Assembly: GCF_001904725.1 (NCBI RefSeq)
Contig: NZ_MRCE01000032.1
Coordinates: 1-64,000 of the forward strand
From: [Phormidium ambiguum] IAM M-71
GTDB lineage: Bacteria; Cyanobacteriota; Cyanobacteriia; Cyanobacteriales; Aerosakkonemataceae
Reading direction: 5' to 3'
DNA length: 64,000 nt
Of this stretch, positions 21,041 to 64,000 are shown one piece after another (the first letter of the stretch is position 1; each line of letters opens with the position of its first letter). The translations under genes were made by a program, and so were the position numbers. Under the pieces are notes generated by a model. The model had not been told where the DNA came from and made no database searches. It saw only the letters and a list, made by a program, of their open reading frames with translations.

Positions 21041-21095
21041 ATTTCTCCTTCCCCTAGCGGGGATTCTCTGGGAACTTTTGTGAAAAACTGAAATA

Positions 21096-38327: not shown

Positions 38328-38504
38328 AGTTAATTAGGGGGTAGGTGTTAGGTGTTAGGGGTTAGGGATTGGGGTGTAGGGAACGAATATTAGACAATGC
38401 GAAAGAGAGCTTTTACCCAATTGTTTTCCCTACCTCCTAACCCCTTTTCCTCCAAAACGGCTATCGCCTTTAATGAAAGACAATAGTGCTTAGGATTTGC
38501 CAAA

Positions 38505-39506: not shown

Positions 39507-39563
39507 TTGAGATACTAAGGAAGTAGACAGTGAAAAGTAGCTTTTTTCTACATTTGCAATTGT

Positions 39564-40172
39564 CTACTCCTTACTCTCTACTGCCCGGTTTCTTTTTTCT
39601 ACCAATTGATAAGTCAAGCGCTCGTAACAAAACTTAAGCTGAGTTTGATTGTTACTAGATTGTTGAGTAGCTACCAAACAAGGCATTCCGTTATAAGTTG
39701 ATTCAGCTTCAGCTTGGAATAAAGGGATTTCTGGTGGTAGGTTGGGATTGAGATAAGCTGCGAATACTTCTTTTGACACCTGAGTTTGAGCAAAGGGAAT
39801 GAAGTATCCTACATAAAGACAGCCGATTTGACCGCAGATATTAGGTTGATGAAAATCATAAATGTTTAATACTCCTTCTCTGCCCTTTACTTGCCACACT
39901 TTCATTTGATCGATCGCACTTTGAAGTTCTGTTAAATTGCTGTGAGATTGAACAATTTGAACTAAAGTTTCTCTTGGTGTCAATTTAGTAGCAGGCTGCC
40001 AAGAAGATAAAATCGTTTTGGCTGAACTATTAGAAGTACAAGCGGTAGTTCCTAACAGCAATGTGATGACACTAAAAAGTATTAAACCAATCCGAAACCA
40101 ATAGGCACTACGATTTAACCAAACAGGCGGTTTTCTAGGTGGCGAGGAAAGTGTAGAAGAATTATTTGGCAT
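39564..40172 (-). CDS. Small membrane-anchored hypothetical protein
   Basis: From the likely start MPNNSS, a TM helix is predicted at FRIGLILFSVITLLLG. The table ORF extends upstream to 40262. Confidence 0.4.
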   Translation of the reverse strand: MPNNSSTLSSPPRKPPVWLNRSAYWFRIGLILFSVITLLLGTTACTSNSSAKTILSSWQPATKLTPRETLVQIVQSHSNLTELQSAIDQMKVWQVKGREGVLNIYDFHQPNICGQIGCLYVGYFIPFAQTQVSKEVFAAYLNPNLPPEIPLFQAEAESTYNGMPCLVATQQSSNNQTQLKFCYERLTYQLVEKRNRAVESKE

Positions 40173-40183
40173 CTTTTTTCTAG

Positions 40184-42292: not shown

Positions 42293-42332
42293 AAAGTTCT
42301 ACTCTCTATTTCTTACTTGCTGTTAATAAAAG

Positions 42333-42551
42333 CTAATCAAGCTCTAGTTCTAACTGTGGATTGAAACGAGTAGGTGAATCTGTCCAAGCACTGTCGGCTA
42401 AATTAGATGAGTCGTAAACGTTTTCTTGATAGCCGTCATCAAAATTACCTTGACGTGCTTTCTCTGGTGAGGCATAACCTAATGTATCTTCATCAGCATA
42501 GTATCCAGAGTTTTGATAGCCTAAATTTGGCTCGAAGGAAGTATTGTTCAT
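42333..42551 (-). CDS. Small acidic hypothetical protein (72 aa)
   Basis: The call rests on the ORF only. Confidence 0.25.
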   Translation of the reverse strand: MNNTSFEPNLGYQNSGYYADEDTLGYASPEKARQGNFDDGYQENVYDSSNLADSAWTDSPTRFNPQLELELD

Positions 42552-42723
42552 AGTTTAGATTGAGTCAGTTAAGTAAACAACTTCAAACTAAATCATGCCA
42601 AACATTTACTACTTCACCAGAACTGGTAATTCTTGACCATTATAGTTACCCCCTCCACTTGGAGGGGAGAGCTTTAATATTAGTTAATCTATAAAGTTAC
42701 AACTTTTCGTCCTCTCAAAATAA

Positions 42724-43035
42724 TCACTTTTGATACAAAGCACGAGTAAAATCTAAAACTTCTCTTTTACGTTCCTCAGATAAGTTTCCGATGGCTGCTA
42801 CAATCTGTTCTGATACTGATAACCAACTTTTAGTTTTAGCCTTCCAAACCACTATAAATTGCTCGGATGATAGCGGACAAAGAACCTCTGCTTCTCCTTC
42901 TTCGTTAGTAAATTCTACTTCATATTTACCATCAGCATAGCAATCTACAATTGCTCCTCGCACTCCCGAAAAAAGATTATACTCAGGCAAATTAACCAGT
43001 AATTCAATTACATCAAATAATTCTGGTTCAATCAT
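42724..43035 (-). CDS. Small conserved hypothetical protein (DUF4926-like)
   Basis: MIEPELFDVIELLVNLPEYNL...GKYEVEF is typical of this small cyanobacterial family. The assignment is from memory. Confidence 0.4.
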   Translation of the reverse strand: MIEPELFDVIELLVNLPEYNLFSGVRGAIVDCYADGKYEVEFTNEEGEAEVLCPLSSEQFIVVWKAKTKSWLSVSEQIVAAIGNLSEERKREVLDFTRALYQK

Positions 43036-43168
43036 CTTCTCCTCCGCACGAAAACGTCATAGAGATTAAATTGATTATAACTGTCTAGATGATTAGTTGC
43101 TAGCAAATAAAATGGATATTAAATTGCCCTACCACTAAACATTTTTATAGTTAGGGCAATATTTTTAC

Positions 43169-43396
43169 TCATTTAACGGTTAACTCTGCTGCCTGCAAAA
43201 CTGCTTCTATATCGTAATCAGTTGGTAGCATAATAACTTGGTAACTGTAATTGTCCAGCGATTGAGTCTCAGAATGATTATCCAATAAATTTTGAACAGC
43301 ATCACAAAATATATCTTGTCCATAGGTTTCTAAAATAGAACCTAGTTTGGCAACACAATCTTGGATCTGTTTGTTTCTAGATTTGAATTGTCTCAT
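43169..43396 (-). CDS. Small hypothetical protein (75 aa)
   Basis: The ORF is adjacent to the DUF4926-like gene. The two may form a pair. Confidence 0.3.
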   Translation of the reverse strand: MRQFKSRNKQIQDCVAKLGSILETYGQDIFCDAVQNLLDNHSETQSLDNYSYQVIMLPTDYDIEAVLQAAELTVK

Positions 43397-43584
43397 CTTG
43401 GTTTAACCTGTTAATTGATAATTATTTGTTAGCGAACGCAACTTTAGTCATTAGTTAATTTTCACGGTACACTCGTACTTCAGCTAAAAAAGTAATGATA
43501 ATTAGCCAAAGATTTAATGACTAAGTGACTCTCTTCACTTACCGCGAGCGCGGTAGCTAAAAAAAGCTAGTATTTACCACTGAA

Positions 43585-45498
43585 ATGAAACTTATTGCCA
43601 AATCAATTATTCGACGTTACTCCTGTACCCGTAGCAGAAAAGATAGTCCAGGTTCTTTTTATTCCTGGGCCGAAACCCAAGTAATGATGCAATATAATCA
43701 GTTAGCTCGGTTTGTCAAAATAAACAACACTAGCTTTTTGAATTATCCCTATCAATTAATCGATAATGCTGCCGATTTAGAAACAGCACTTGAACCATTT
43801 ATGGCAGCAAAAATTATTGGCGTTGACTGTGAAACATCAGGAGGAATTGATCCATATCGAGCCAAAATTCGCTTGGTGCAACTAGCGATTCCCCAACATC
43901 CAGCTATCATTATTGATTTAGCTGCTATTGATAGTGCAGATTTGTCACCATTACGCCAACTTCTCAGGGGAAATGCACTCAAAGTAGGACACAATCTTAA
44001 ATTTGAATGGATGATGTTAGCACAAGCTGGATTAAAACCAAGCCGCCCTTTTTTTGATACCTACCTTGCTTATCGCGTGCTAACTGCCGGACTTAAATGT
44101 AGTTTATCTCTAGAAGCAGCAGCAGCACAATTACTAAATGTCAAATTAGACAAAAGGTTACAAACAAGTGATTGGTCGGGCGAACTAACAGCTGCTCAAT
44201 TACAATATGCAGCTATAGATGCAGCAATTGTATTGCCTTTACGAACTAACTTGAAACGTCAACTAAAAAAAGCTTTGTTGTGGTCAACTGCTTTACTGGA
44301 ATTTGCTTGTTTACCAGCAGTTGCTCAAATGGAACTCAATGGAATGTGGTTAGATAAACAACAATGGCAGTTATTGAAAGCACAGCTAGAAGCACAACAG
44401 AAAGCACTTGCTATAGAGCTTTCTTCATTGCAAATTCCATCCCCGAATAAACAAATTTGTTTACTTCCAGAATTCGCTAATTCTATCAATCTGCGCTCTC
44501 CCAAACAAGTTTTAGCTGCTTTGCAAGCCCAAGGAATTCCGGTTTCTTCTACTAACACTCAAGCTTTAATTCCTTTAGTTAACGAATACCCCATAATACA
44601 AGCATTGCTGGATTATCGTAGTTTATCAACTAGAATTAGCACCTTTGCAGAAGGATTAGTACAGCACGTTCATCCCGTTACTGGACGCATTCATCCCAAT
44701 TGGTTTCAAATAGGAGCTAAATCGGGTAGATTTAGTTGTCGAGAACCGAATTTACAAAATGTTCCCAGAAATCCAGCTACTCGACAATGTTTTAAACCTG
44801 CATTGGGCCATGTTTTACTGAAGGCAGATTACAGTCAAATTGAACTACGAATCATGGCTAAAGTGACTGGCGATATGCGAATGATTGCTGCTTATTCAAA
44901 GGGTGAAGATTTGCACAAATTAACTGCTTCTTTAGTATTGGGTAAGTCGCTATCTGAGATTAATTCAGAGGAACGACAGCTTGGTAAAATCATCAACTTT
45001 GGCTTAATTTATGGTATGGGAGCCAAGAAATTTAAAAATATGGCACAAGCCGAACATGGTAGAGTTTTGAGTTTAGAAGAAGCTTCACAGTTTCGGAAAC
45101 GCTTTTTTGAAAGCTACGCTGGCATTGCAGAATTTCACAAGCATATTCGCAGAAACTGGCTTCAAGGAATTAGAGAAAGTCGTACTTTAGGAGGTAGGCG
45201 AAGACTTTGGTCTAAAGATTCTAAGCCATTGCTTAACGAGATGTTGAATAATCCAATTCAAGGACTGAGTGCTGATATCACAAAACTGGCACTAGCCAAA
45301 CTATTTGCACCACTGAATCGCACAGAAGCCAGGTTGATTTGCGTAATTCACGATGAGATTTTACTAGAGTGTCCGATTGCAGAAGTAGAACCAGTTAAAG
45401 CTTTACTAAAACGCTCTATGGTAGAGGCTGGAGACAAGTTTTTAACACCAATTTCCTGTGAAGTTGAAATTCAAATGGTTGAGAGTTGGGGAGGTTAA
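43585..45498 (+). CDS. Family A DNA polymerase (PolA-like, with a 3'-5' exonuclease domain and no 5' nuclease domain)
   Basis: Exo I is IGVDCETSG. Motif A is DYSQIELRI, which is identical to E. coli Pol I. Motif B is RQLGKIINFGLIYGMG. Motif C is VIHDEILLE. Confidence 0.85.
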   Translation: MKLIAKSIIRRYSCTRSRKDSPGSFYSWAETQVMMQYNQLARFVKINNTSFLNYPYQLIDNAADLETALEPFMAAKIIGVDCETSGGIDPYRAKIRLVQLAIPQHPAIIIDLAAIDSADLSPLRQLLRGNALKVGHNLKFEWMMLAQAGLKPSRPFFDTYLAYRVLTAGLKCSLSLEAAAAQLLNVKLDKRLQTSDWSGELTAAQLQYAAIDAAIVLPLRTNLKRQLKKALLWSTALLEFACLPAVAQMELNGMWLDKQQWQLLKAQLEAQQKALAIELSSLQIPSPNKQICLLPEFANSINLRSPKQVLAALQAQGIPVSSTNTQALIPLVNEYPIIQALLDYRSLSTRISTFAEGLVQHVHPVTGRIHPNWFQIGAKSGRFSCREPNLQNVPRNPATRQCFKPALGHVLLKADYSQIELRIMAKVTGDMRMIAAYSKGEDLHKLTASLVLGKSLSEINSEERQLGKIINFGLIYGMGAKKFKNMAQAEHGRVLSLEEASQFRKRFFESYAGIAEFHKHIRRNWLQGIRESRTLGGRRRLWSKDSKPLLNEMLNNPIQGLSADITKLALAKLFAPLNRTEARLICVIHDEILLECPIAEVEPVKALLKRSMVEAGDKFLTPISCEVEIQMVESWGG

Positions 45499-45568
45499 GT
45501 TGGCTTTATATACCTAGCTAGATTGAACATTGCTGAAATGAGAAAGTGAAGAAATTGAAGTTTTTACC

Positions 45569-45592
45569 AACCCGCATTAGCGGGTTTTTTTT
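45569..45592 (+). terminator. Rho-independent terminator
   Basis: The sequence is aacccgc-atta-gcgggtt followed by a T9 run. Confidence 0.75.
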
Positions 45593-45625
45593 ATGAAATT
45601 CACTTTATCGGCTTAGAGATTAAAT

Positions 45626-46063
45626 ATGTCCAATTATACATTTGTACCGCCCATCTGGATTATTTGCCCACATGAAGGATTAAGATTGAGAATTAGTATT
45701 GAGTCAGAATTGCTGGGAACAATTAGTGATGGCGAACAACTTCAAACAATTACTCGTTATCAAAGATTTGGCACTAGTCCTGCTAATGGGGATTTCATCG
45801 AAGGCGTTGCTGCTGTTACTTCTAGTACAGGATTAGTCATAGGAATTCATCGAAGATTGTATGTCACTTGGTTGGCTCCTGCATTAAACCCAGCACTAAA
45901 TTATAGTCGTTATTTTGTGACGATTTTGGCACTGCCGACAACGATGTCTTCTTCTCCCAACGAGTATCCAGCTGCTGTTAGTTTGTTAGAAACGCAACGT
46001 TTTTGCGAACCATCTAATTTGCCAGAAGATATCAACAAGCAACCACCATTTTATCTTGAATAA
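45626..46063 (+). CDS. Hypothetical protein (145 aa)
   Basis: The call rests on the ORF only. Confidence 0.35.
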   Translation: MSNYTFVPPIWIICPHEGLRLRISIESELLGTISDGEQLQTITRYQRFGTSPANGDFIEGVAAVTSSTGLVIGIHRRLYVTWLAPALNPALNYSRYFVTILALPTTMSSSPNEYPAAVSLLETQRFCEPSNLPEDINKQPPFYLE

Positions 46064-46074
46064 CTTAACCGCGA

Positions 46075-47259
46075 TTGCGGTCAATGGGTAGCAAAACTTC
46101 TTTGTTGTTACCCATGAAAAGTTTACTTGAAATTCCCATAATTGATTCAAAAATTCGCATTGAAGTTCGGCAGCACTTACGAAAAGAATCCTACCAAATT
46201 AAGAGCAGGAAAGATTTAATTCCTCACCTCAACCGGAATTTGAAACATGGCTGGCTCTTACCAATTTTAGCGCAAGTAGACCGTTGTCTTTGGGGAAGGT
46301 GGGATTATTGGGCGAGGTGTCAAGCAGTTCCGGCTCATGCTTGGACAAGATGGCAAATGGAACCAATGTTAGCTCTTTTAGAAAATCGCAAATCCGAACG
46401 ATTACCCAAATTTGTGATTCAAGAAACACTACCGAATGAACCAATACCTCAAATTGAATGGCAGTATTCGAGCCTAGCAGAAAGTATGCTAAACAATACG
46501 CTTAATTGTATTCCTAAACATGGGGAATGGCGCACTTGGAGTGCTTGGGAATATTTGCAATATTTCTTGCATTGGGCTTTGTTTGGTTTCGGTCATCCGG
46601 CTTACAAAAGTTTACCGAAAGAACCAGCAGGTTGTGAAGGTGCATCAATGCGTCTGTATCAGGTTTTCGATTTGTCTGCTCTCCTACTTTATCCTGAAGA
46701 TTATTTAGGTAGAATTCTTCCTGATATTTGTGGCAAGAAAGCTCAGAGAAATGCTGGGTTTTATCCGACACCGTTAGTGGTTGCTAGTTTCATATCTCAA
46801 GTAATTAGTCATGAGAAAATCGACCGAACTGCTAGTTTTTCTGAACCAGCTTGTGGGACGGGTGCTTTGATGTTGGCACAATCTAATAATTGTTTGTCTG
46901 GTATTGGTCAAGATATCGACCAAGTTTTGTTAAAATGCGCTTTATTTCAGTTTTTTCTCTATGCACCTTGGTTGGCAATACCGATTTGGTGGTTGGGTCA
47001 AACTGACCTATTACTTGGTAATAGTTTATCAGCCAAAAAGCCTGAATCAATGAATGCGGTTTATTGGTATTCAGAATGGTTTGAAACTGTTGAAAATAAG
47101 GAAGTGGCGGAAAATATTGAACCAACAATTGAGATAGTAGAACCAACAATAACCCCGAAAATAGTAGTTCAAGAAGTAGTACAGGGTAAACGCAAACCGA
47201 AAAAGAATCCAGCTTCAGGTCAGCAAATGACATTGTTTAATTTGGAAAATTTTACTTGA
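46075..47259 (+). CDS. N6-adenine DNA methyltransferase-like protein (HsdM/N6_Mtase-like motifs). Motif IV is not evident.
   Basis: AGFYPTPLVV matches the GxFYTP motif and EPACGTGALM matches the SAM motif I. No NPPY/DPPF was found. Confidence 0.4.
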   Translation: MRSMGSKTSLLLPMKSLLEIPIIDSKIRIEVRQHLRKESYQIKSRKDLIPHLNRNLKHGWLLPILAQVDRCLWGRWDYWARCQAVPAHAWTRWQMEPMLALLENRKSERLPKFVIQETLPNEPIPQIEWQYSSLAESMLNNTLNCIPKHGEWRTWSAWEYLQYFLHWALFGFGHPAYKSLPKEPAGCEGASMRLYQVFDLSALLLYPEDYLGRILPDICGKKAQRNAGFYPTPLVVASFISQVISHEKIDRTASFSEPACGTGALMLAQSNNCLSGIGQDIDQVLLKCALFQFFLYAPWLAIPIWWLGQTDLLLGNSLSAKKPESMNAVYWYSEWFETVENKEVAENIEPTIEIVEPTITPKIVVQEVVQGKRKPKKNPASGQQMTLFNLENFT

Positions 47260-47386
47260 AAGCTAAAATTCCAAATAAATAGGAAAAATTCAAACGTAAG
47301 TAATATTTCAAGAAATTGAAGCAATCTTATGTAACGGTCAAAGTAATCTAAGCGTTACATAAGACTCAATTTTAGTGAAATTAGAC

Positions 47387-47408
47387 AGGCGACTATTGTC
47401 GCCTTTTT
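47387..47408 (+). terminator. Rho-independent terminator
   Basis: The sequence is aggcgac-tatt-gtcgcct followed by TTTTT. Confidence 0.7.
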
Positions 47409-47433
47409 CGATGAAGTGAAATAGGTAAAAATC

Positions 47434-47769
47434 ATGCAAAATGTTAACTTCATCGGCTACAAATGTGAAGTCAAAGTTAGTCGTTATGCTCATGGCATAT
47501 CTCCCTGCCTACGTTTAGTGGATACTGAAGGAATGCCTATAGCAACAGCCACAATCAATGTGCCTAATTTTCAATTACCACCCGATTATGTTGTTATCAA
47601 AAATTACTCGGAAAATGAAGGTATTTTGGAAGCACTGGTAGCTGCTGAAATTGTACATCCAACTGGAAAAACAGTGCCAATCGGTCACAGCATTGGCTAT
47701 ATTTGTCAGCTAGCTCCTGAAGTAGCAGCACAACTGCCATCTGTTGAGCTTAATAATATTAAGGTTTAA
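47434..47769 (+). CDS. Hypothetical protein (111 aa) bracketed by terminators
   Basis: It forms an independent small transcription unit. Confidence 0.4.
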   Translation: MQNVNFIGYKCEVKVSRYAHGISPCLRLVDTEGMPIATATINVPNFQLPPDYVVIKNYSENEGILEALVAAEIVHPTGKTVPIGHSIGYICQLAPEVAAQLPSVELNNIKV

Positions 47770-47793
47770 AAGCTTTTGGCAGAAAGATAAAAA

Positions 47794-47817
47794 CTCCGCA
47801 GTCCTGCGGAGTTTTTT
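47794..47817 (+). terminator. Rho-independent terminator
   Basis: The sequence is ctccgcag-tc-ctgcggag followed by TTTTTT. Confidence 0.75.
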
Positions 47818-48157
47818 AGGCTCTTGACTTGCCAGAATTAGGTCAAATTGAGAAACTTACGCTTCGCCAATGTCGTGCAATTATTCGCTCACTTAATAAT
47901 ACGCTGCCAAAAAGCGATCGTTTTTTGAAAAATTCAAGAACTGCTTTAGCTTTTTTTAATATTTCTTCGTTGGAGTACTTCGCTATAATTCTTTTTTTGT
48001 CAGGAATTAATCAAGAAAAAACAACTTATTATAGAAGCTGCATCAACTATAATTAAGTCTTTTATTAATAGCTTATTTAACTTTAACTACAGTAATGACA
48101 AGTTGTTTTCTGGGCAGCTAGCGCTGCCCCAGTATGACAGCTATTTTAAGATAAAAT

Positions 48158-49588
48158 ATGCAAACAAAAACTCGACCTGCTAAAAGAAAAAGCCAAGTCA
48201 AAGAAAATGGTTCTGTTCAAACAAAAGCTAAAGCTGATACCACGAGACGAACGGAATCTCAAGCTGAGAAGAAACCCAAAGTAGAAACAAAAGTAGAAAC
48301 AAAAGCAGAATCTACATCCGAAGTCAATACTAACAGTTCAGATGCTGTTCTATCAACGGGGATGCGATTAATTTGCACGCAAGAGAACTTAGCAACTCAC
48401 CTCGATTTAGTTAGTCATGCCGTGCCTGCTAAACCCACGCATCCAATATTAGGAAATGTTTTGTTGATTGCTAATCAAGAAACTCAAAAAGTTCAACTGA
48501 GTGTTTTTGACCTTAATCTAGGTATTCAAACATCATTTGATGCTAAAGTTCAAGCCTCTGGCGAATTGACTATTCCAGTGGGAATCTTGAGTGATATTGT
48601 AGCGAAACTCTCTCGCGGGGATATTACTTTAGTCAATCAATCGCCTTTGAATACGGAGGAAACTGAAGATAATCATCCCGAGAAAGTAGAGGCAGGTCAA
48701 CATCAAATTATGACGTTAATCGCTACTACTGGACGCTATCAAGTACGGGGATTACCAACTGAGGAATTTCCGCCGATTCCTGAAGTTAATTCAACGCTAA
48801 AAATTCGGGTGCCAGTGGAAGCTTTGCAAGCCGGAATTAAAGGAACGTTAATCGCTACAACTAGTGATGAAACTAAGCGCATTTTAACAGGTATTCACTT
48901 CAAAATAGAGTCAAATGGCATCGAATTTGCTGCGACGGATGGACATCGATTAGCTGTTATTAATACTTCGCTTTCCGGGTTCAAAAAGAAGAAACAAACT
49001 GAAATTACAGAGCCTTTAGAGTTTACAGTACCAGCTAAGGCGCTGGTGGAGTTAGAGCGGATTTTATCGAGTAGAACATCAGTCGAGCCAGTGGAATTAT
49101 TCTATGAAGAATCAAAGGGACTTATCGAATTTCGCTGGGGAACGCAACGATTAGTTAGCCGTTGTTTAGAAGGTGCATATCCAGCGTATCAAGAGTTATT
49201 GAAGCAGGATTTTAAACAACAGGTAACGTTGGAGAAAGCACCTTTGATTAAGGCTTTAGAAAGAATTGCGGTGTTGGCTGATAAGAAGGAAAAGAGTGTC
49301 AGTATCCGTCTTAATAGTGAAGCTCAACAAGTTTGTTTGTCATTGTTTAGGGAATTTGGAAATGGTCGGGAAGAGATGACGGCTTGCATTAATTGCGATA
49401 GTGATATGTCAGTTTCTTTTAACATTAAATACTTGTTGGAAGGAGTAAAAGTTATTGCTAGTTCAGAAATTCAGATGCAACTAACTCAAAAAGATGGCCC
49501 TGCTATTTTAGTTCCGTTTGGCAATCGAGAGCAACCTAATATTCTGATGGATGCTCAATACTTGTTAATGCCAATTTTCAAAGAATAA
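48158..49588 (+). CDS. dnaN: Second DnaN-like beta sliding clamp with a Lys-rich N-terminal extension
   Basis: HPILGNVLLIA and ATDGHRLAV are present. The protein is about 40% identical to the 18609..20048 copy by eye. Confidence 0.75.
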   Translation: MQTKTRPAKRKSQVKENGSVQTKAKADTTRRTESQAEKKPKVETKVETKAESTSEVNTNSSDAVLSTGMRLICTQENLATHLDLVSHAVPAKPTHPILGNVLLIANQETQKVQLSVFDLNLGIQTSFDAKVQASGELTIPVGILSDIVAKLSRGDITLVNQSPLNTEETEDNHPEKVEAGQHQIMTLIATTGRYQVRGLPTEEFPPIPEVNSTLKIRVPVEALQAGIKGTLIATTSDETKRILTGIHFKIESNGIEFAATDGHRLAVINTSLSGFKKKKQTEITEPLEFTVPAKALVELERILSSRTSVEPVELFYEESKGLIEFRWGTQRLVSRCLEGAYPAYQELLKQDFKQQVTLEKAPLIKALERIAVLADKKEKSVSIRLNSEAQQVCLSLFREFGNGREEMTACINCDSDMSVSFNIKYLLEGVKVIASSEIQMQLTQKDGPAILVPFGNREQPNILMDAQYLLMPIFKE

Positions 49589-49607
49589 TGAGGGGAGAAA
49601 ATAAATC

Positions 49608-50957
49608 ATGTACGCAGCATTACCTCAAAAATATCGTCCGCGCACGCTATCAGAATTAGCCGGACAGGAATACATTCAAAGAACGCTGGCTAATGCGATT
49701 AAGGGGAACAAAATAGCTCCTGCTTATCTATTTGCAGGCGAACGAGGTGTTGGTAAAACTTCAACGGCTCGTATTTTTGCTAAGTCGCTTAATTGTAATG
49801 CTACAGATAAACCAACTGTTACGCCATGTGGCAAATGTCAGTCCTGTCGTTCCATTGAAAAAGGGAATAGTTTAGATGTAGTTGAAATTGATGCAGCTTC
49901 TCATAATGGAGTAGAAGATGCTCGAACATTAATCGAACGAGCGCATTTTGCACCAGCGATGAGTCGCTATCGGATTTTCGTTTTAGATGAATGTCATCAA
50001 TTAAGTTCTCAGGCGCAAAATGCACTGCTCAAGTGTATCGAAGAACCTCCGGCTAATGTGGTTTTTATTCTTTGTACGACAGAAGCACATAAGCTATTGG
50101 CGACTATTAGTAGTAGGTGTCAAGTATTCCATTTTCGGGTGTTAGCTATTCATGCAATTGTACAGCAGTTAACGATGATAGCTGATAGCGAATCTATCGC
50201 TATTTCGGATGAGGCGAAGGTGGCTATTGCTCGGATTGCAGAAGGTGGACTTAGGGATGCTTTGCAATTACTTGACCAATTAAGTTTGTTAGGGGAGGAA
50301 ATTACTAGCTCTCACGTTTTGGAATTATCAGGAAGAATATCGGAGTCTGATTTAATAACAATTCTGCAATCAATTCGTAGTGGTGATACGTTGAAGTTGT
50401 TGCAATTATCTCGCGAGTTGATTGATAGCGGGAAGACAGCAAAGGTGTTATTGATGTCGCTACTTGCTTGTTATCGAGATTTACTGTTGGTAGGGAATGT
50501 ACGCGATAGTTTGCATTTGTTAACTAGCGGGATTTCCCATTCGACACTGCTGAAGATAGTGGCAGATTGGGACTATACAGTAATTAATGCTGGTATCGAA
50601 CAGCTACGTGCTTCGGAATGGCAGTTAAGTAAAAGCTTACAACCGAGTTTATGGTTAGAGGTTTGTCTGCTGGGATTGGTGCAGGGTAATAATTCCCCAA
50701 AGTCGAGTCAATGTTCTAAAGAAAAACAGCCTGTTCAACTAACAGCTATTTGGGAAAAGGTGCTGTCTAAAACTTCCGAAAGTAATCGAGTTCTGCTTGA
50801 GGTTGCTTCTTTAGTGGAACTCAAAGGTAAGAAAGCTGTATTGGCTGTGCCTGCTAAGTACTTAGATAGGTTTAATCGGAATACGGCTAAGGTACAAAAG
50901 ATGCTGTTTGGGGTGACTGGTGTTCATTATCAATTGTTGATTCAGGAGAAGATTTGA
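49608..50957 (+). CDS. dnaX: Second DnaX-like gamma/tau clamp-loader ATPase
   Basis: YRPRTLSELAGQE, GERGVGKTS, CNATDKPTVTPCGKCQSC, DECHQLS and SRCQ are present. The N-terminal half is about 70% identical to the 21096..22472 copy. Confidence 0.8.
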   Translation: MYAALPQKYRPRTLSELAGQEYIQRTLANAIKGNKIAPAYLFAGERGVGKTSTARIFAKSLNCNATDKPTVTPCGKCQSCRSIEKGNSLDVVEIDAASHNGVEDARTLIERAHFAPAMSRYRIFVLDECHQLSSQAQNALLKCIEEPPANVVFILCTTEAHKLLATISSRCQVFHFRVLAIHAIVQQLTMIADSESIAISDEAKVAIARIAEGGLRDALQLLDQLSLLGEEITSSHVLELSGRISESDLITILQSIRSGDTLKLLQLSRELIDSGKTAKVLLMSLLACYRDLLLVGNVRDSLHLLTSGISHSTLLKIVADWDYTVINAGIEQLRASEWQLSKSLQPSLWLEVCLLGLVQGNNSPKSSQCSKEKQPVQLTAIWEKVLSKTSESNRVLLEVASLVELKGKKAVLAVPAKYLDRFNRNTAKVQKMLFGVTGVHYQLLIQEKI

Positions 50958-51907
50958 TGATTAGTTTGTTAGTTGGTGATGACGTTCACGCGATTAACAA
51001 GAAGCTTTTGGAGTTCAAAAAAAGTCTTGACCCGGATTGGATAAGTTTCAACTACCATCGATTTTCGGCTGGTGTAATTGAGGAGGCTATTGATTGTGCG
51101 TTAACTCGTGCATTAGGGAAAGGGAAAGGAAAGTTAGTGGTGGTTGAGGAGTGCAATTTCAAACAGTTTACTGAGGAAACGATGAAAAGTCTTCAGTTGT
51201 TATCGCAGGTGCCAGAAACAACACATTTGGTATTTGTCGCATCAGCGATTGATAAGCGATTGAAAGTGGTAAAGTTTCTACTTTTTCAAGGTAAACTGTT
51301 TGAATTCAATTTAATTGCGCCTTGGAGAACAGATTTAATCGCTCGGTCGATAGGAAGTGAAGCAAAAGCAATGGGTTTGTCGCTTGATAGAAAGATTATT
51401 GAGTATTTGGCGGGTGCTATTGGTAATAATTCGGCGCGTGCTGAAGTGGAATTACGAAAGCTGGCGAGTTACAGTAATGGGAAGAAGCTTAGTGTTGAGG
51501 AAGTGGGAGTACTTGTTCCTTCAACTACTCAGAATAGTCTGCAATTAGCTTCTGCAATTCGAGAGAGTAATGCAACTAAAGCTGTCAATTTGTTGCAAGA
51601 GTTGCTAGATAAGGAGACTTTTCCATTGGCGATTTGTGCCACACTAATTACTCAGTTTAGAACTTGGATGTGGGTGAAGGCGGTGCTGGTGGGTGGGGTG
51701 AAGCAGGATGCTGAAATTGCCAGAGTTTGTCAAGTTGCTAATCCCAAACGGGTATATTTTCTCAAACAAGAGGTGGCTGGTGTGGGTTTGCGGTCTTTAA
51801 TTCAAGCGATGTCGATGTTGTTGGAGTTGGAGGTGGCGCTTAAAGGGGGACGGAAGGGGGATTTGATGTTGACGACGGCGTTGGCGATGGCTTTAGTATT
51901 TGGTTAA
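50954..51907 (+). CDS. holA: Second HolA-like delta subunit
   Basis: The start MMISLLVGDD is holA-like. The gene has an ATGA overlap with dnaX. It is collinear with the 22469..23458 copy. Confidence 0.65.
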   Translation: MMISLLVGDDVHAINKKLLEFKKSLDPDWISFNYHRFSAGVIEEAIDCALTRALGKGKGKLVVVEECNFKQFTEETMKSLQLLSQVPETTHLVFVASAIDKRLKVVKFLLFQGKLFEFNLIAPWRTDLIARSIGSEAKAMGLSLDRKIIEYLAGAIGNNSARAEVELRKLASYSNGKKLSVEEVGVLVPSTTQNSLQLASAIRESNATKAVNLLQELLDKETFPLAICATLITQFRTWMWVKAVLVGGVKQDAEIARVCQVANPKRVYFLKQEVAGVGLRSLIQAMSMLLELEVALKGGRKGDLMLTTALAMALVFG

Positions 51908-52371
51908 GTGCTTGTTTGTGAATGGAAAATTTTCCATTGGAGTTCAGGTAACGCTATGCCAGCAGTAAATTTACTTTTGGCTTAGCGTTGTCCTAATTAA
52001 TGAAGGCACTTCATTGCAGTCAGGATGGGAACACTGCGACCCGATGGTATTTTTTAGAGAGTTACAATAATCCTTAATCCTTTGGGTCTTGCTTACGGTC
52101 TTTATAGCCCTGCCTATTATCGATTAACTCAGCCGCTCACCGTAGTAGGTGTCGCTTCATGACAATGCGATCACAATTAGTGCGGGTGACTCTGGCGAGA
52201 CTAACTAGTGGGTAGGGACTCCCTGTGGCTTGAGTTGTTAGAGCTATTAGCAAAAAAATGAGCAATAAGGAGGCTCAGTCAACTCCGAAGGCCAATCAGC
52301 TGGACATTATGCCGAATAACTTGCTTATCATATAAAAGGCTCTTTTGTGATAGATATAACTTTAGCCTTGC

Positions 52372-55300
52372 ATGATTGCCCCTAACGAGTTTCAGCGCTA
52401 CTTAAAATCAGTTCTTGATACTTCAGGGGAGAACACCAAACGGGAGGTAGCTGATCGCTATATTCCAACGCTAGCTGAGTTGCCCTTGCAGGTACAAACT
52501 GCTGTATCATCTCAGCCAAACTCACAGGAACAACAAAATGAGAGGCGAGAGCAGTTCGCAGTGCTAGAGGGATTGCGAAAGTATGCTCCAGATCGTGTGC
52601 TGTTGGTGGGTAAACCTGGTTCAGGAAAATCAACTTCACTGCGGCGATTGTTGTGGGAAGAAGCAGAACGCTGTTTAAAAGCGATCGAGGAAGGTGAGAG
52701 CGAGATTCCCCCAATACCTATCTTGATTGAATTGCGGGGTCTTAAAGGTTCAGTGTTAGCAGCGATTCAAGAAAATCTGGGATGGTGGCTTGACCTTGAT
52801 GAGAAAACCTTAAAAAGTCTCTTCCGTGATAGAGGATTGTTCGTGTTCTTAGACGGGTTGAATGAATTACCTAACGAACAAGCTTGGCAAGCAGTAGATC
52901 AATTTAGACAGGTATGTGCTGATTTAAAAGTTCCTATAATCATTACAACGCGAGAACTGGGTTCCGGCTTGGTTCAGGAAAATATTAAGAAGCTGGAAAT
53001 GCTACCGCTGACTGAGCCTCAGATGTGGGAGTTTGTCCAAAAGCAGTTACCGGAGACGGGTGGGGAACTATGGCGGCAAATTCAAGGGAAGCTTCGGGAA
53101 TTAGCAGAAACGCCGTTGCTGCTAAAGATGTTGTGTGATGTTTTTAAACAGAATCATAAAAATATTCCTAAAAGCCGAGGAGATCTATTTCGTAAGGAAT
53201 TTGCGCGACGATATGAGGAATTTAAACCTGAACGATATCGGAATATTTCTGAAGACTCGCGTCGTTTTGCGTTTGATCTACTGAGCTATCTCGCCTTTAC
53301 GATGGTTCAAGGCGAACCTCATACCGATCCCTGCCAACCCAGTGCCTCTTGGATTACTATTCCTAAAACTCAGGCAGAAAAAATATTAGCCACGTTTCTG
53401 GCAGGCGATCACATACAAACTTTGGAGGATACGACAAAAGCAAAAGAGTGGTTAGAGGATTTAGTGGAATGGCATTTACTCCAAGTAGCTAGTGACCCAA
53501 CCCAAATAGAGTTTCACCATCAACTGTTTCAGGAATATTATGCAGCGGAGCGGCTAGCGCCACAGTTGGCAGAGTTGAGTGATGAAGAATTGCAATATTA
53601 CTACTTAAATTATCTAAAGTGGACGGAATCGCTAGCAATGGCGATGTCGTTTGTGGAGTCTGAGGTCTTAGCAGTGCGGATAGTGAAACTAGCACTAGAT
53701 GTTGATTTGCAATTGGGAGCAAGACTAGCTGGAGAAGTTAAGCGTGAAAATCAAGCCAGAACAGTAAATATGATTACTGATTTAGAAGTTTCTGAAAAAT
53801 TTAAGGTTAGACTATTGGGCATGACAAGTTCTGATGTTGCTATTCCTTTTCTCAGCCAAGCTCTAGAAAATAATAACGATACCTTTACAAAAAATGAAGT
53901 TGCTGATTGCTTAGAGAAAATTCATAGTTATGCTTCAATTCCTCTCCTTAAGAAGATTCTAGAGGATGCTGATTTTAAACTTAAGTTAAAGGCTGCTTGT
54001 TCATTAGCTCGTTATGGTGATGAAACGGTTATACCAATTCTTAAATATGCTCTCAATAATAAAGAATACCATTTTAGATCTCTTCTGGCCCTAGAGAAAA
54101 TCAGTCGAGATGTTGTGATTCATGCACTAAACGAAATCTTGAGTAGAGGAGATATAGAGATGCGCCGTCAAACGGTATCTAGTCTTCATGTTTTAATTCA
54201 GCGAAAATATGAAAATATAGTACCTCTTTTAATAAAGGCATTGGGTGATGAAGATAGAGAAATTAGGTATCAAGCAGCATATGTTTTAAAAAATCAAGGA
54301 GGCAAAGACGCTCTCGCTGCTTTAGCAAAACTATGGAAAGATGAAAACATTTTAATCCGAAATATTGTTTATATTACGTTTAAGGGACAAGAAAGGAAGG
54401 ATTTAATATCCGAGCTGACAGAATCTCTTTTATCCGAGGATTCTGCACTTCGTAAGAAAGCCGTAGAAACTCTAGGAAGACTGGGTACAGAATCAAAAAC
54501 AGCCATTAAAGCACTCTTTAAAGTTGCTTTTGCAGATCGAGACTTTCTAGTTCGCAATAGTGCTTTAACCGCTCTGATTCAAATCGGAAACTCAACATTA
54601 ATACAGACCTTATCCAAAATTTTAGAACAACAAGAAGAAGTAATTGAATACAGTTCAAATCACTGTGTAGCAGTTATTACATTAATAATGATTCGCTGTA
54701 AGGAAGCCATCCCTATATTATCTCGCGTTTTAATAGATAATAATAGAAGTCCTATACTGCGCGGATTGGCAGCTAAAGCTCTTGGTGAAATAGGCGATAC
54801 ATCAGTTAATAATATACTTCTGGAAATACTGAATAATAATCAGATAGATGATTATATCTGGTTTCAGGTTCTTTTGGCTTTAGGAAAACTTGGTATTGAA
54901 GGTCTTGAAGGCAGGATCGCTAATTTTCTAAAGCATCCAAATTCTGATAAACGAAAAGAAGCTGTAGAAACTTTAGCAATCATTGGAACCGTTACAGCAA
55001 ATGTTGGTTTAACTCAGGCTCTTACCGATGATGACTTTTCAGTTCGTTTCACTGCTGCTTGTTCTTTGGGAAAAAACGGCAATGAAGCCGCCATCCCCGT
55101 TTTAATTGAAGCACTGGGGCAGCGTGACTCTATAGGATGGGAAGATACAAGAGTATGTGAAGATGCTATAGAGGTTCTGAGTCAGATTGGAGCAATAGCT
55201 CTCATTCCTCTGAAGGAAGCTTTAAATAATTCCGACTACCAGATTGAACGGAATGCAGAAAAGGCCATTAAAAAAATTAGCAAATCTCTGGCAAAAGATT

Positions 55301-56097
55301 TGTTAAGCGATGACTTTGAGAGCTATAAATTTTTAAGTCTTGATAGTTCCATTAATGAATCCTTAAATCAGTATAATGATATTAATGAAAAATCAAATTT
55401 ACTAGAAAATTTTTTGTCGTATTTTGATGCGTATTGGGAATCAAAGCCTGAATTGAGTAATGATGCTATTACTGAAGATATCTCTCTGCTTTATAAACTT
55501 ATTGCCGAAGAACAATCAAGTGAGTTATTGAATTATATTGTAAATAAAATCCTTTCAACTCAATCCCGTTGTCAATTTTATAACTGCGACATCGCTCGGT
55601 TGCCACCCCCTCGGAAAACGCAAAGCAAAGAATCAAGTATAGAAGATTTAGTACATAATAAGTTAGACATACTTACCCAGGAGTTCAAAAAAGTGTCTGA
55701 AGAACCTAAGCGCGTCATTAATACTAACAACTACTTTGAACAAGGCATCCATACCCATACCCACAATTATGCAAACGATGAAACTTTAAAACAACAAACC
55801 GTCGAACTTCGCCAATTGGTACATCAAATTCAGCAAACCCACCAACCAACCACCGAAGTCGAAGCTGCTAAGATCATTGATGTCGAATTTCGCGAAATCC
55901 AAAAGACGAACCCGACTCGGTGGCAAACACTAAGGAAACAACTGCAACTTTTAAAGCGCCAACTCTTCAACCCAGAAAGTCACTTTAAAGCCACAAAAGC
56001 AACCCTTGCTGAAATCGCTAAACATTATCTCGAAGAAAGTGTCGTTTCCAAAGCCGTCATTACTTACCTAGACACTATGAGTGCTGACTCTGACTAA
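52372..56097 (+). CDS. STAND/NACHT-type P-loop NTPase fused to a long array of HEAT (PBS-lyase-type) repeats (1241 aa)
   Basis: Walker A is LLVGKPGSGKST and Walker B is LFVFLDGLNE. At least 10 repeats of about 31 aa have the form LxxALxDxDxxVRxxAAxALGxIG. Confidence 0.7.
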   Translation: MIAPNEFQRYLKSVLDTSGENTKREVADRYIPTLAELPLQVQTAVSSQPNSQEQQNERREQFAVLEGLRKYAPDRVLLVGKPGSGKSTSLRRLLWEEAERCLKAIEEGESEIPPIPILIELRGLKGSVLAAIQENLGWWLDLDEKTLKSLFRDRGLFVFLDGLNELPNEQAWQAVDQFRQVCADLKVPIIITTRELGSGLVQENIKKLEMLPLTEPQMWEFVQKQLPETGGELWRQIQGKLRELAETPLLLKMLCDVFKQNHKNIPKSRGDLFRKEFARRYEEFKPERYRNISEDSRRFAFDLLSYLAFTMVQGEPHTDPCQPSASWITIPKTQAEKILATFLAGDHIQTLEDTTKAKEWLEDLVEWHLLQVASDPTQIEFHHQLFQEYYAAERLAPQLAELSDEELQYYYLNYLKWTESLAMAMSFVESEVLAVRIVKLALDVDLQLGARLAGEVKRENQARTVNMITDLEVSEKFKVRLLGMTSSDVAIPFLSQALENNNDTFTKNEVADCLEKIHSYASIPLLKKILEDADFKLKLKAACSLARYGDETVIPILKYALNNKEYHFRSLLALEKISRDVVIHALNEILSRGDIEMRRQTVSSLHVLIQRKYENIVPLLIKALGDEDREIRYQAAYVLKNQGGKDALAALAKLWKDENILIRNIVYITFKGQERKDLISELTESLLSEDSALRKKAVETLGRLGTESKTAIKALFKVAFADRDFLVRNSALTALIQIGNSTLIQTLSKILEQQEEVIEYSSNHCVAVITLIMIRCKEAIPILSRVLIDNNRSPILRGLAAKALGEIGDTSVNNILLEILNNNQIDDYIWFQVLLALGKLGIEGLEGRIANFLKHPNSDKRKEAVETLAIIGTVTANVGLTQALTDDDFSVRFTAACSLGKNGNEAAIPVLIEALGQRDSIGWEDTRVCEDAIEVLSQIGAIALIPLKEALNNSDYQIERNAEKAIKKISKSLAKDLLSDDFESYKFLSLDSSINESLNQYNDINEKSNLLENFLSYFDAYWESKPELSNDAITEDISLLYKLIAEEQSSELLNYIVNKILSTQSRCQFYNCDIARLPPPRKTQSKESSIEDLVHNKLDILTQEFKKVSEEPKRVINTNNYFEQGIHTHTHNYANDETLKQQTVELRQLVHQIQQTHQPTTEVEAAKIIDVEFREIQKTNPTRWQTLRKQLQLLKRQLFNPESHFKATKATLAEIAKHYLEESVVSKAVITYLDTMSADSD

Positions 56098-56597
56098 CAA
56101 GAATAAATCATGTAAATCGCGATCGCAGCCGTAGTTCCTATTTTAGGATTCCATCCCACATTCCGCACCCACTGAAAATCACTCTCGCTTAAGGGAAAAC
56201 CAATTCAGCTATTGCTAATTTTAAGTTTTACAACAGGTTAGATTTTGCTAATTCAGGCTGGGGGAAATTTATTCAGATTTATAGCAAGCCTGACAGTAAG
56301 GCTTAACTTTTTAATTAAAATTTTGAAACTAAAGTCGCACTCTTTCCCGTTGATATCCAGTTCGTAATTGAAGGTATATTCAGTACAATACTAAAACTAG
56401 AAAACAAATAAGTATTTTCACTATATAAAGCAGTTATCAAATATTAAGTAAATCCCGTAATTCCTCGTAATAAATCTTTATAAATAAGTTGTAATCTGGG
56501 TACAGAAGCACATTTATTAGCTTCAATCATATTCACAGAAATACTCAAAATAAATGAGAATTAGAGTTTTATTATAGGAATTTTCTTAGATACAGTA

Positions 56598-56978
56598 GAA
56601 GATAATGATGAATCTAGTGGTTGGAGGATTGAATCTTTACGCAAGAAACTGGGCATCCTCCCCTCGACTCCTCTAACGTTTCCCACTATAATCTGCCCAC
56701 TTTGTCACCAAGGTTTTTTCTCTGATATTGAGTTACAAAACCATATTTTTCAGGTTCATAAAGATCACCGTTGCTACATTCGCCTTAACGATCAAAGCCG
56801 ATACTTCCCTGGAGATTTTGCTGCGTTGATTGAGCCAAGCATAATGAAAGAGAGTCGAGTTAGAGCTATGTACTTTGATTCTCAACAAATTAATGAATAC
56901 TTACAGACTATTATGTGCCTCAACTGCAATCGTCCATGTGCTGGTACTTGTCAACTAGATCCTCCAAAACATTCCTAA
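56598..56978 (+). CDS. Possible small C2H2 zinc-finger protein. The reading frame has no canonical start codon and may be frameshifted.
   Basis: The frame encodes ICPLCHQGFFSDIELQNHIFQVH, which is C2H2-like, followed by CLNCNRPCAGTC. An ATGATG start lies in the +1 frame at 56605 and gives 23 codons before a stop. Confidence 0.3.
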   Translation, partial: EDNDESSGWRIESLRKKLGILPSTPLTFPTIICPLCHQGFFSDIELQNHIFQVHKDHRCYIRLNDQSRYFPGDFAALIEPSIMKESRVRAMYFDSQQINEYLQTIMCLNCNRPCAGTCQLDPPKHS

Positions 56979-57035
56979 TATTTAGTAAAATAATTGATTC
57001 CATATAGATTAGTAAGGCTAGATAAGGGGAGCAAG

Positions 57036-57836
57036 TTAATTCAGTACTAGAATTCCTTGATAAATCAACCGATCGATATGTTCTGTAACTTGGCTGGCTA
57101 AATCTTGACTGTGAACTAACAGTCCCATTTCCATATTCAGCGCCAGTGCATATTCGGTTAGATTCGCACTGGAAATGAAGAGGTGGGTGTTATCTGCGAT
57201 CGCACATTTAATATGCAAAGAACCAAACCGACCGTCTGAATCAGTCAGTCGTTGTTCGTGAGGCCAAACAAATACTTGCGCTTTGGTGATAATTTTAGTA
57301 CCGAAAGCTGTTTTAATCCCAAATGGAATTTTAGCATGGTCAGAATCGGGTGTTTCCACAATTATTCGCAGTTTCACACCTCGATTAATAGCAGTTACCA
57401 ATGCCGCTGCTATTTCAGGGACTTTATAAACAGCAAAACTAATCAAAAGTAATTCTTGTTGAGCATTTTGAATTAATTGTAATAGCACTTGGTCAGTGCG
57501 ACGCAGAGGAATATCGGAAATACTTGGGCCAGTCCAAACTATTTCAACTGATAATTGTTCTTGGTTTTGTTGCTCGCAATAAGCAGCAGTTAATAAAGCA
57601 GTAGCCAGAGAAGAACTATCCAAACTTGGGGCTTGAGTATGCCATACTTCAATTAATTGGACGATCGCTTGTCGCCAACTGACTTTAGGTAATCGCTGGA
57701 GTAATTCACTTTTTAAGTTATCAGAATCTCCTCTGCTTTGACAGTTACTTAAGACATTAGCAATTGATTCCAATGTCGGGGTTGGTAGTTCCAAAGCTAC
57801 ACGCCGAATTTGAGCTAGTAATGGGGGTGACAGCAT
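57036..57836 (-). CDS. drmC: Phospholipase D-family (HKD) nuclease-like protein, DrmC-like
   Basis: The HKD motif is HIKCAIADNTHLFISSANLT, that is HxK-x4-D-x6-GSxN-like. The gene shares a boundary nucleotide with the upstream DUF1998 gene. Confidence 0.55.
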   Translation of the reverse strand: MLSPPLLAQIRRVALELPTPTLESIANVLSNCQSRGDSDNLKSELLQRLPKVSWRQAIVQLIEVWHTQAPSLDSSSLATALLTAAYCEQQNQEQLSVEIVWTGPSISDIPLRRTDQVLLQLIQNAQQELLLISFAVYKVPEIAAALVTAINRGVKLRIIVETPDSDHAKIPFGIKTAFGTKIITKAQVFVWPHEQRLTDSDGRFGSLHIKCAIADNTHLFISSANLTEYALALNMEMGLLVHSQDLASQVTEHIDRLIYQGILVLN

Positions 57837-59722: not shown

Positions 59723-59772
59723 TATATAAATTTCTTAGCTTTGTAGTGAGCGCTTTAGCGCTAAAGCGCTTA

Positions 59773-63982: not shown

Positions 63983-64000
63983 TTAGTCAGAAAAATCAGG

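Follow-up and report, generated by a model that had tools for sequence, protein, structure and literature searches.

A second, divergent clamp and clamp-loader gene set on a plasmid-like contig of [Phormidium ambiguum] IAM M-71, probably acquired from a co-resident plasmid lineage

The T4 proteins gp45 and gp44/gp62 and the archaeal RFC system are examples of replication machineries with their own sliding clamp and a two-gene clamp loader, the latter probably composed of four ATPase subunits and one clamp-opening subunit. For cyanobacterial plasmids, no description of clamp/clamp-loader modules was found in the literature searched; nevertheless, DNA and protein searches of PLSDB revealed a triad of dnaN (beta sliding clamp), dnaX (clamp-loader ATPase) and holA (delta subunit) on large, mostly MOBP/MPF_T conjugative plasmids of this phylum. 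The present analysis deals with a stretch of 64,000 nucleotides (the window) of [Phormidium ambiguum] IAM M-71 (= NIES-2119) that encodes two such sets, triad 1 and triad 2, with all six proteins on one draft contig of 71,511 bp. The two triads are assigned to lineages labelled type A (triad 1) and type B (triad 2), both labels being coined in this analysis. In our reading, the type-B triad 2 was probably recombined onto a type-A plasmid backbone from a co-resident plasmid, and a plasmid-private role in replication processivity is inferred for it. The genes of triad 2 are:

48158-49588, plus strand: dnaN2, type-B plasmid-type beta sliding clamp (three clamp Pfam domains; TIGR00663; match to solved clamps from residue 69)
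49608-50957, plus strand: dnaX2, gamma-like clamp-loader ATPase of 449 aa (Walker A/B, SRC, Zn module; family-specific C-terminal region)
50954-51907, plus strand: holA2, delta subunit (Pfam; TIGR01128; the RefSeq start is the ATG at 50957)

Each clamp (DnaN1 and DnaN2) matches PF00712, PF02767 and PF02768, and DnaN2 scores 271 with TIGR00663 (NCBIfam curated cut-off 138), which places it among the beta clamps. Its first 68 residues (48158-48361) form a basic, disordered tail; the canonical clamp begins at M69, and the alignment with solved clamp structures (E 7e-38) likewise starts at residue 69. The C-termini of the two copies (...LMPI and ...IAPQ) resemble, as judged by eye, the cleft-lining C-terminus of clamps. 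DnaX2 belongs to the AAA+ DnaX proteins by its TIGR02397 score (388, cut-off 250), and Walker A/B, sensor 1, the SRC arginine finger and the Zn module are all present in both DnaX copies. However, its match to the cyanobacterial DnaX model is confined to positions 5-378 of 640, with a score under the cut-off of that model, and only residues 2-292 are covered by solved gamma/tau structures (E. coli gamma, E 5e-67); the tau domains IV-V, through which DnaB and the alpha subunit of Pol III are bound, were not found in DnaX2 by either the model or the structure matches. The C-terminal 75 residues of DnaX1 gave a weak match to PF23007. HolA1 and HolA2 both match the N- and C-terminal domains of the delta subunit (PF06144 and PF21694), and the TIGR01128 score of HolA2 (173, cut-off 80) identifies it as a delta protein. 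The start of holA2 overlaps the stop codon of dnaX2, suggesting translational coupling, and the terminator-like hairpins after the upstream polymerase gene (polA) and the open reading frames (ORFs) ORF394 and ORF111 let triad 2 appear as a transcription unit of its own. Triad 2 is under purifying selection and shows no sign of decay: the ratio of non-synonymous to synonymous change (pN/pS) against four orthologues is 0.05-0.23, and 8 non-synonymous/16 synonymous changes on the window branch compare with 35/109 on the other branches (p=0.45).

Triad 1 starts 29.5 kb before triad 2 and ends 24.7 kb before it. Its genes, and the ORF lying within it, are:

18609-20048, plus strand: dnaN1, type-A plasmid-type clamp with a 72-residue N-terminal tail (18609-18830 region) (Pfam, tree)
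20102-21118, minus strand: ORF between dnaN1 and dnaX1, weak YhgA/Transposase_31 match (E 0.007)
21096-22472, plus strand: dnaX1, type-A clamp-loader ATPase of 458 aa (Pfam, motifs)
22469-23458, plus strand: holA1, type-A delta subunit with a 4-nt overlap with dnaX1 (Pfam, tree)

A sequence-only reading of this DNA had proposed the second triad and described it as a collinear paralogue of the first rather than a recent repeat. Indeed, the ORFs lie exactly where it placed them, all six proteins match the expected Pfam domains, and the gene order is the same, with the minus-strand ORF between dnaN and dnaX restricted to triad 1. The relationship of the corresponding proteins is evident from BLASTP (E values of 1e-75 for DnaN, 4e-165 for DnaX and 1e-107 for HolA), while at the DNA level only approximately 600 bp of dnaX and 60 bp of holA can be aligned and no 31-mer is common to both triads. 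The identities proposed by the same reading were borne out for the N-terminal half of DnaX (about 70%; 69.9% over residues 1-229, with 54.8% globally and 29% over the last 85 residues) and were about right for HolA (45-50%; 50.6% globally), but slightly high for DnaN (about 40%; 33.4% globally, 35% in the core). Its observation of no frameshifts held for both triads, and the catalytic motifs are intact. The lysine-rich N-terminal extension that it regarded as unusual is present in both clamps as a low-complexity tail of about 70 residues with a basic start, yet it is not peculiar to them: at least 40 extra residues, with a median of 65 and the reading frame maintained, were found in 62 of 72 plasmid DnaN ORFs. 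These tails typically comprise 65-75 residues, are rich in K, T, S and E and begin with a basic stretch; the clamp of pCC7120beta has an 85-residue C-terminal tail instead.

Some peculiarities of triad 1 recur elsewhere. The ORF at 20102-21118 is kept at the same site in Floridaenema aerugineum and has a homologue near the triad of a Xenococcaceae metagenome-assembled genome (MAG); the gap between dnaN and dnaX is also widened by inserted sequence in pNPM2 and Kamptonema, and the dnaX/holA overlap was present in all annotated loci examined. Directly 3' of holA1, genes for tRNA-Ala(CGC) and tRNA-Lys(CTT) are located (23549-23696); F. aerugineum has a tRNA-Ala(CGC) gene at the equivalent site (locus L086, 11241-11389), followed by an ARAGORN-predicted tRNA with a four-base anticodon (gaaa).

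Neighbour-joining trees with 200 bootstraps were calculated for HolA, DnaX and DnaN, and loci were classified as type B if the three proteins grouped with those of pOSC7112.01, Planktothrix and the large contigs of Floridaenema and if ORF145-ORF394 was present upstream. The type-B clade received 100% support in the HolA and DnaX trees and 45% in the DnaN tree, in which the position of Planktothrix was unstable; the type-A clade was supported by 99.5% (HolA) and 100% (DnaN). For none of the three proteins did any of the 200 bootstraps recover triads 1 and 2 as exclusive sisters. All plasmid HolA proteins were separated from chromosomal HolA at 100% (e.g. Crinalium PCC 9333, about 39% identity). 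HolA2 falls into a clade with members from Floridaenema, Argonema, Kamptonema, Microcoleus, Planktothrix and pOSC7112.01 (60-96% identity), to which HolA1 is approximately 50% identical; the relatives of HolA1 are found in F. aerugineum (97%), Phormidium LEGE 05292 (86%) and pOSC7112.02 (67%). Similarly, the triad 2 proteins are 63-70% identical to those of pOSC7112.01, and triad 1 groups with pOSC7112.02. Both plasmids are complete and reside in Oscillatoria nigro-viridis PCC 7112 as separate replicons of type B (pOSC7112.01, rep_cluster_1695) and type A (pOSC7112.02, rep_cluster_309). The two types are also located on separate contigs in Kamptonema UHCC 0994, two Microcoleus strains and F. 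aerugineum (contigs of 101 kb and 190 kb). By these groupings, triad 2 is to be counted to a different plasmid lineage that normally has a replicon of its own beside the lineage of triad 1. A third triad, again of type B, is present in the investigated strain on a contig of 154,844 bp (OKH36141, OKH36142, WP_084555156).

A single triad per replicon is the usual state of the family. HolA homologues were detected in 42 PLSDB plasmid records at 43 places, and the survey for single versus double triads revealed a single one in all 42 complete plasmids; pNPM2, the candidate for a double-triad precedent, was rejected, since what counts there as a second holA is just a C-terminal fragment, 1 kb past the genuine gene. 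In a scan of one genome per species, which yielded 199 loci, none of the best 80 shared a contig, and each fetched locus contained exactly one triad within 10 kb on either side of holA. Several triad plasmids per strain are common, with three in PCC 7112. Some HolA family members are situated on contigs of megabase size, e.g. in Richelia sinica (5.7 Mb), and a Phormidium MAG has homologues of ORF145 and ORF394 (XWK88790, XWK88789) on a contig of 6.86 Mb; the modules can thus be chromosomal or integrated.

The architecture of the join was deduced from comparison with type-A and type-B loci of related strains, among them L089, a metagenome contig (JGI 3300003315) that encodes a HolA identical to the third copy of the investigated strain and was used as proxy for the third-triad locus. 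The features concerned are:

43585-45498, plus strand: PolA-type polymerase with 3'-5' exonuclease and polymerase domains and no 5' nuclease (NF011539 score 653, cut-off 640)
45417-47260, plus strand: segment common to types A and B (last 81 nt of polA, ORF145, ORF394), 1.85 kb with about 92-94% nucleotide identity
45626-46063, plus strand: ORF145, in the common segment
46075/46114-47259, plus strand: ORF394 (RefSeq WP_073596050)
47434-47769, plus strand: ORF111, a small gene also present between ORF394 and dnaN in the type-B contig of F. fluviatile
49896-50636: 741-bp exact identity to L089 inside dnaX2, amid about 5% divergence elsewhere
51871-52035: right end of the type-B homology, just past the holA2 stop

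The type-A contig of F. flaviceps matches the window from 37798 to 47260 with 86-97% identity through polA, ORF145 and the ORF394 homologue, whereas beyond that point it continues with unrelated genes and without a triad; it represents an empty site. Type-B loci, on the other hand, match the window only at 45417-47260 (about 92%) and from 48104 to 51871/52035 (94-95.5%); the 31-mers shared in the common segment begin at 45417. The type-B contig of F. fluviatile is collinear with the window over 45536-51891 including ORF111, the first sequence past the switch that is specific to type B. The sequence past 51871-52035 did not match any type-A or type-B locus of the Floridaenema relatives. On this evidence types A and B share a recently exchanged segment of 1.85 kb that the window enters on the type-A side and leaves on the type-B side, and which is the probable recombination substrate and left junction. 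A remnant of the polA 3' end (73-81 nt) precedes ORF145 also in type-B loci without a polymerase gene at this place (L089, 3275-3356; L006, 2708-2779); either these loci have lost the polymerase gene, or a type-A plasmid was the source of the segment.

As neither flanking repeats nor an integrase or insertion sequence (IS) were found at the ends of the block, transposition or site-specific insertion is unsupported, and homologous recombination is the simplest mechanism. A type-B stretch, at least ORF111 through holA2 (about 47.3-52.0 kb), would have been joined to the type-A backbone by a crossover within the common segment (polA 3' end, ORF145, ORF394), resulting either in a full cointegrate (single crossover) or in a patch (double crossover). 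The sequence-only reading had considered a cointegrate of two related replicons: the different plasmid lineage and the join in a shared segment agree with this suggestion, but only one set of backbone genes was found, with one each of the type IV coupling protein (T4CP), DUF5895, PolA, DEAD/MZB helicase and RecD-like helicase genes in the window, which does not comprise the complete replicon, so that a further set may be located outside it. Furthermore, collinearity with pNPM2 of Nostoc, a complete plasmid with one triad, extends from the E2/ThiF genes through DISARM: common to both is the order E2, ThiF, RecD-like helicase, dnaN, dnaX, holA, DEAD/MZB helicase and ORF219, followed by T4CP (minus strand), DUF5895, ORF232 (minus), ORF702 (minus), PolA with its exonuclease domain, PLD (minus), DrmB (minus) and DrmA (minus). 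In consequence of the single backbone set and this collinearity, a patch-type insertion is as likely as a full cointegrate. The sequence-only alternative of a fused phage-plasmid is unsupported; nothing phage-like was seen in the window.

As to function, the role of the triads and their clients is deduced from sequence features: Each triad would supply a plasmid-private processivity system that consists of a tailed beta clamp and a minimal DnaX-HolA loader lacking delta-prime and the tau domains. The loader may be a DnaX4-HolA1 pentamer comparable to T4 gp44/62 or archaeal RFC; alternatively, the host delta-prime could be used by the plasmid loader. The clamp, in turn, would serve the PolA-type polymerase of the plasmid and other clients such as ORF394. 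Among the 15 PLSDB plasmids that carry the closest HolA relatives, 11 encode a PolA-type polymerase, which also occurs on triad-less plasmids of 12-42 kb, once directly after a DnaB-like helicase; it is therefore plausible that this enzyme might be the plasmid replicase, with the processivity module as an addition on large plasmids. No conserved terminal clamp-binding motif was found in PolA, which left an internal motif only: the QICLLP loop (…PNKQICLLPEF; residues ~286-296, window 44440-44470) in the Pro/Ser-rich junction of the exonuclease and polymerase domains. At the aligned position, the polymerases of other triad plasmids show QLSLF, QLSLL, QMSLL or QISLL, and those of small triad-less plasmids have the loop absent or deleted; the motif Q[LIM][SCP]L[LF]P occurs on 8 of 9 triad-bearing versus 2 of 7 triad-less plasmids (p=0.035). 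Two further candidate clients were rejected: the C-terminal QITLF of the RecD-like helicase was absent in the other 37 homologues examined, and the "LLKQMGLLLL" stretch of the DEAD/MZB helicase lies within a folded Zn domain, with the window copy lacking the Q.

The strongest candidate for a clamp client, with predicted binding, is ORF394, which consists of a truncated methyltransferase-like protein, a disordered linker and a C-terminal QxxLF motif of the clamp-binding type (QMTLF; C-terminal peptide …GQQMTLFNLENFT). Its family comprises at least 277 homologues and reaches beyond the cyanobacteria; a basic stretch followed by QxxLF terminates 94 of the 120 homologues examined, Q371 being invariant and L374/F375 conserved to at least 90%. 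The structural model (predicted local distance difference test score, pLDDT, 83.6) revealed a folded methylase-like domain and a 45-residue disordered linker that leads to the motif, residues 328-373 being disordered. Although motifs X (FxPTP) and I (GxG), which bind S-adenosylmethionine, are conserved, motif IV reads YAPW; with the (D/N/S)PP(Y/F/W) signature thus replaced and the fold truncated, ORF394 does not qualify as an HsdM-like N6-adenine methyltransferase. In line with this, only marginal matches were obtained with Pfam N6_Mtase (E 0.024 over 50 residues) and Foldseek (best E 3e-3, TM score about 0.3). ORF394 may act as a methylase-like factor that is tethered to the clamp.

In the more distant version of pCC7120beta, a PolB-like gene is enclosed by those for clamp and loader: the module (locus L092, 62861-71105) reads dnaN, dnaX, a hypothetical gene, the PolB-like gene (annotated as "3'-5' exonuclease"), a second hypothetical gene, holA and an AAA gene of delta-prime-like type, and ssb and parAB are located a few kb beyond. 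By its gene content this module would amount to a fuller plasmid replisome around a family-B polymerase.

Several observations weigh against the proposed recombinant and its private processivity system. The genome was assembled from MiSeq 2x300 bp reads by metaSPAdes, with BESST scaffolding and FinishM gap closing (PMC5334580), and the third triad, being 91.7% (HolA), 98.4% (DnaX) and 94.8% (DnaN) identical to triad 2, creates repeats. The link from the left part of triad 2 to everything right of 50636 is not proven, because the 741-bp repeat within dnaX2, which is due either to a conversion event among type-B copies or to the collapse of a repeat during assembly, exceeds the read and insert length, so that the sequence beyond it cannot be phased against the 155-kb contig. 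No sharp crossover point was detected inside the common segment, where mapping by sliding-window identity was uninformative owing to the equal similarity of A and B, and the right junction revealed no recognisable homology or repeat. Moreover, the DISARM-like block to the right resembles the DISARM genes that adjoin type-B triads in Microcoleus (81-83% DNA identity), and the type-B-derived part may in consequence exceed 6.5 kb. With regard to function, no delta-prime gene was found in the window, the DNA_pol3_delta2 domain being confined to the two DnaX copies among ORFs of at least 150 aa; likewise, a tblastn search of pNPM2 with DnaX retrieved nothing besides dnaX and, thus, no delta-prime. 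The correlation of the PolA loop motif with triads ignores kinship, and the F. flaviceps polymerase has E in place of the Q of the motif.

An assembly chimera, with triads 1 and 2 on different molecules that were misjoined through a repeat shared with the other type-B locus, would be in keeping with the short-read-only data and graph-based gap closing, the third near-identical triad and its exact dnaX repeat, and the separate contigs of A and B in related species; the misassembly caveat of the sequence-only reading was an apt one in view of this third, 92-98% identical triad. The window contains no Ns. An independent Logan assembly (run SRR4407854) is 100% identical to it over 12469-45446 and 51822-64000 but holds no piece in between, and exact-protein look-ups of DnaN2, DnaX2 and HolA2 were empty. 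To take the breaks at 45446 and 51822 as a sign of misassembly was nevertheless rejected: the first and last 31-mers shared with L089 start at 45417 and 51821 and predict both contig ends to the base, which indicates a repeat rather than a mistake. The left junction segment contains exact repeats of at most 128 bp, shorter than the 300-bp reads, so that the link PolA-ORF394-ORF111-dnaN2 is read-resolvable. In addition, exactly two ORF394 copies of the strain occur in its 90% cluster, one per contig, with a type-B triad downstream of both; on either path the copy linked to PolA is thus bound to run into such a triad, although a loose end is left by ORF145, of which the corresponding cluster contains only one copy from this strain. 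Finally, the two triads of the window cannot be confused with each other given that they lack common 31-mers. A chimera is thus considered unlikely.

An ancient in-situ segmental duplication of one triad with subsequent divergence, the origin that the sequence-only reading had offered as "old duplication", could explain the identical gene order, the tails of both clamps and the deep divergence. It is refuted by closer relatives in other genera, the failure of the two triads to form exclusive sisters in any bootstrap and the separate replicons elsewhere: each triad has orthologues of 93-97% identity in Floridaenema on different contigs and of 63-72% in other genera, relatives with the same backbone carry a single triad, an empty site exists, and the clamp tail is a family-wide trait; the probability left to a duplication is close to negligible. 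Triad 2 may also have been retained for functional specialisation, i.e. two orthogonal sets for different polymerases or clients such as PolA and the host Pol III. Both sets are intact and constrained, the clamp is the most diverged component between the types (33% versus 51-55%), and co-resident plasmids each keep their own set. However, the window encodes one polymerase only, the complete plasmids surveyed do not suggest that two triads per replicon are generally selected (0 of 42), and recent recombination, with a close relative lacking the second set at the site, suffices to explain the arrangement, which renders specialisation distinctly improbable. The join of triad 2 was, judging from the compared loci, most likely brought about by inter-plasmid recombination and not by in-situ duplication, resulting in an unusual but mechanistically ordinary mosaic, and the second set would most likely have come along as a functional passenger of this recombination and not as an adaptation to another polymerase.

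The remaining genes of the window look, by their domain content, like the backbone of a conjugative plasmid:

333-2033: group II intron reverse transcriptase/maturase, with domain V at 257-333
10307-15123: Prok-E2_D / ThiF (E1-like) / ORF416 cluster
15199-16937: NadR-like (cytidylyltransferase + AAA_28) and PnuC (nicotinamide mononucleotide transporter) genes, upstream of the RecD-like helicase
17075-18505, plus strand: RecD/PIF1-like SF1B helicase, directly upstream of dnaN1; homologue near the triad in 39 fetched loci
27217-29874, plus strand: DEAD/DEAH helicase with MrfA-type Zn domain (DEAD/MZB), recurrent triad neighbour
33511-34170: ORF219, near the triad in 37 fetched loci
36399-38327, minus strand: T4CP, single-copy conjugative gene between the triads
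38505-39506, plus strand: DUF5895, single-copy conjugative backbone gene between the triads
57036-63720, minus strand: DISARM-like block of PLD/DrmC, DUF1998/DrmB and DrmA, downstream of PolA as in pNPM2

In addition, the backbone carries a DUF3854 gene, an SPFH gene, a two-component system and a NACHT/HEAT protein. The G+C content of the first 6 kb (1-6000) is 46-47%, compared with 35-43% across most of the remaining window, and the Logan contig begins at about 5049, which marks a further repeat boundary. The E2/ThiF/ORF416 cluster looks like a ubiquitin-like conjugation system within the backbone: the E2 and ThiF genes recur in pNPM2, a ThiF gene with a JAB-type gene is located upstream of the pCC7120beta triad, and ORF416 recurs in 11 triad loci. 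The NadR-like and PnuC genes may represent NAD-salvage cargo; in F. aerugineum this site is taken by an AhpC-TSA_2 gene and another gene without Pfam domain. ORF219 possesses a conserved acidic-hydrophobic C-terminal tip (NLDEIDEVxL) that recalls the C-terminal tails of SSB, and in DUF5895 a basic linker leads to a long acidic tail that contains Phe.

The wider interest of the locus lies in the apparently undescribed family and its candidate clients rather than in the second triad itself: Hundreds of cyanobacterial plasmids have their own clamp and minimal loader, and strains often hold two or three versions. In a more far-reaching interpretation, of which we remain rather doubtful, co-resident megaplasmids would each encode a private, orthogonal set (a tailed, episodically fast-evolving clamp, a loader without delta-prime, a PolA-type replicase with a clamp-binding loop and a clamp-tethered methylase-like protein), and the window would be a natural recombinant with two of them. 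If so, private sets would shield the replication of each plasmid against the Pol III holoenzyme of the host and against other plasmids, and if the sets were replicon-specific, they would constitute a natural example of orthogonal replisome parts, with a possible route to understanding large-plasmid replication in polyploid cyanobacteria and parts for engineered orthogonal replication. The conserved tail of the clamp-binding type on a methylase-like protein would connect bacterial DNA modification with replication in a way that is directly testable.

Compared with the E. coli system, (gamma/tau)3-delta-delta' and beta, the plasmid set agrees in the Walker A/B motifs, SRC, the Zn module and the matches to the curated HolA and DnaN models, but differs by the lack of a delta-prime gene and of tau IV-V and by an extra C-terminal region of DnaX and the 65-75-residue clamp tail. 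With T4 and RFC it shares the same logic and no specific sequence relationship, as the plasmid genes form a sister clade to cyanobacterial chromosomal holA (about 39%). ORF394 resembles eukaryotic DNMT1, which is tethered to PCNA, and the bacterial clients with a QL[SD]LF motif (Pol II/IV/V, Hda, MutS, IS transposases) in its methylase-like domain, linker and terminal QxxLF, and deviates from them by YAPW, the truncated fold and the weak structural matches to methyltransferases. The dnaN-dnaX-holA modules of pOSC7112.01, pOSC7112.02, Planktothrix agardhii p1 and pNPM2 have the same genes in the same order, the dnaX-holA overlap, the tailed clamp and the same neighbours (RecD-like and DEAD/MZB helicases, T4CP, DUF5895 and PolA-type polymerase); in contrast to these plasmids with one triad each, the window unites two lineages on one contig.

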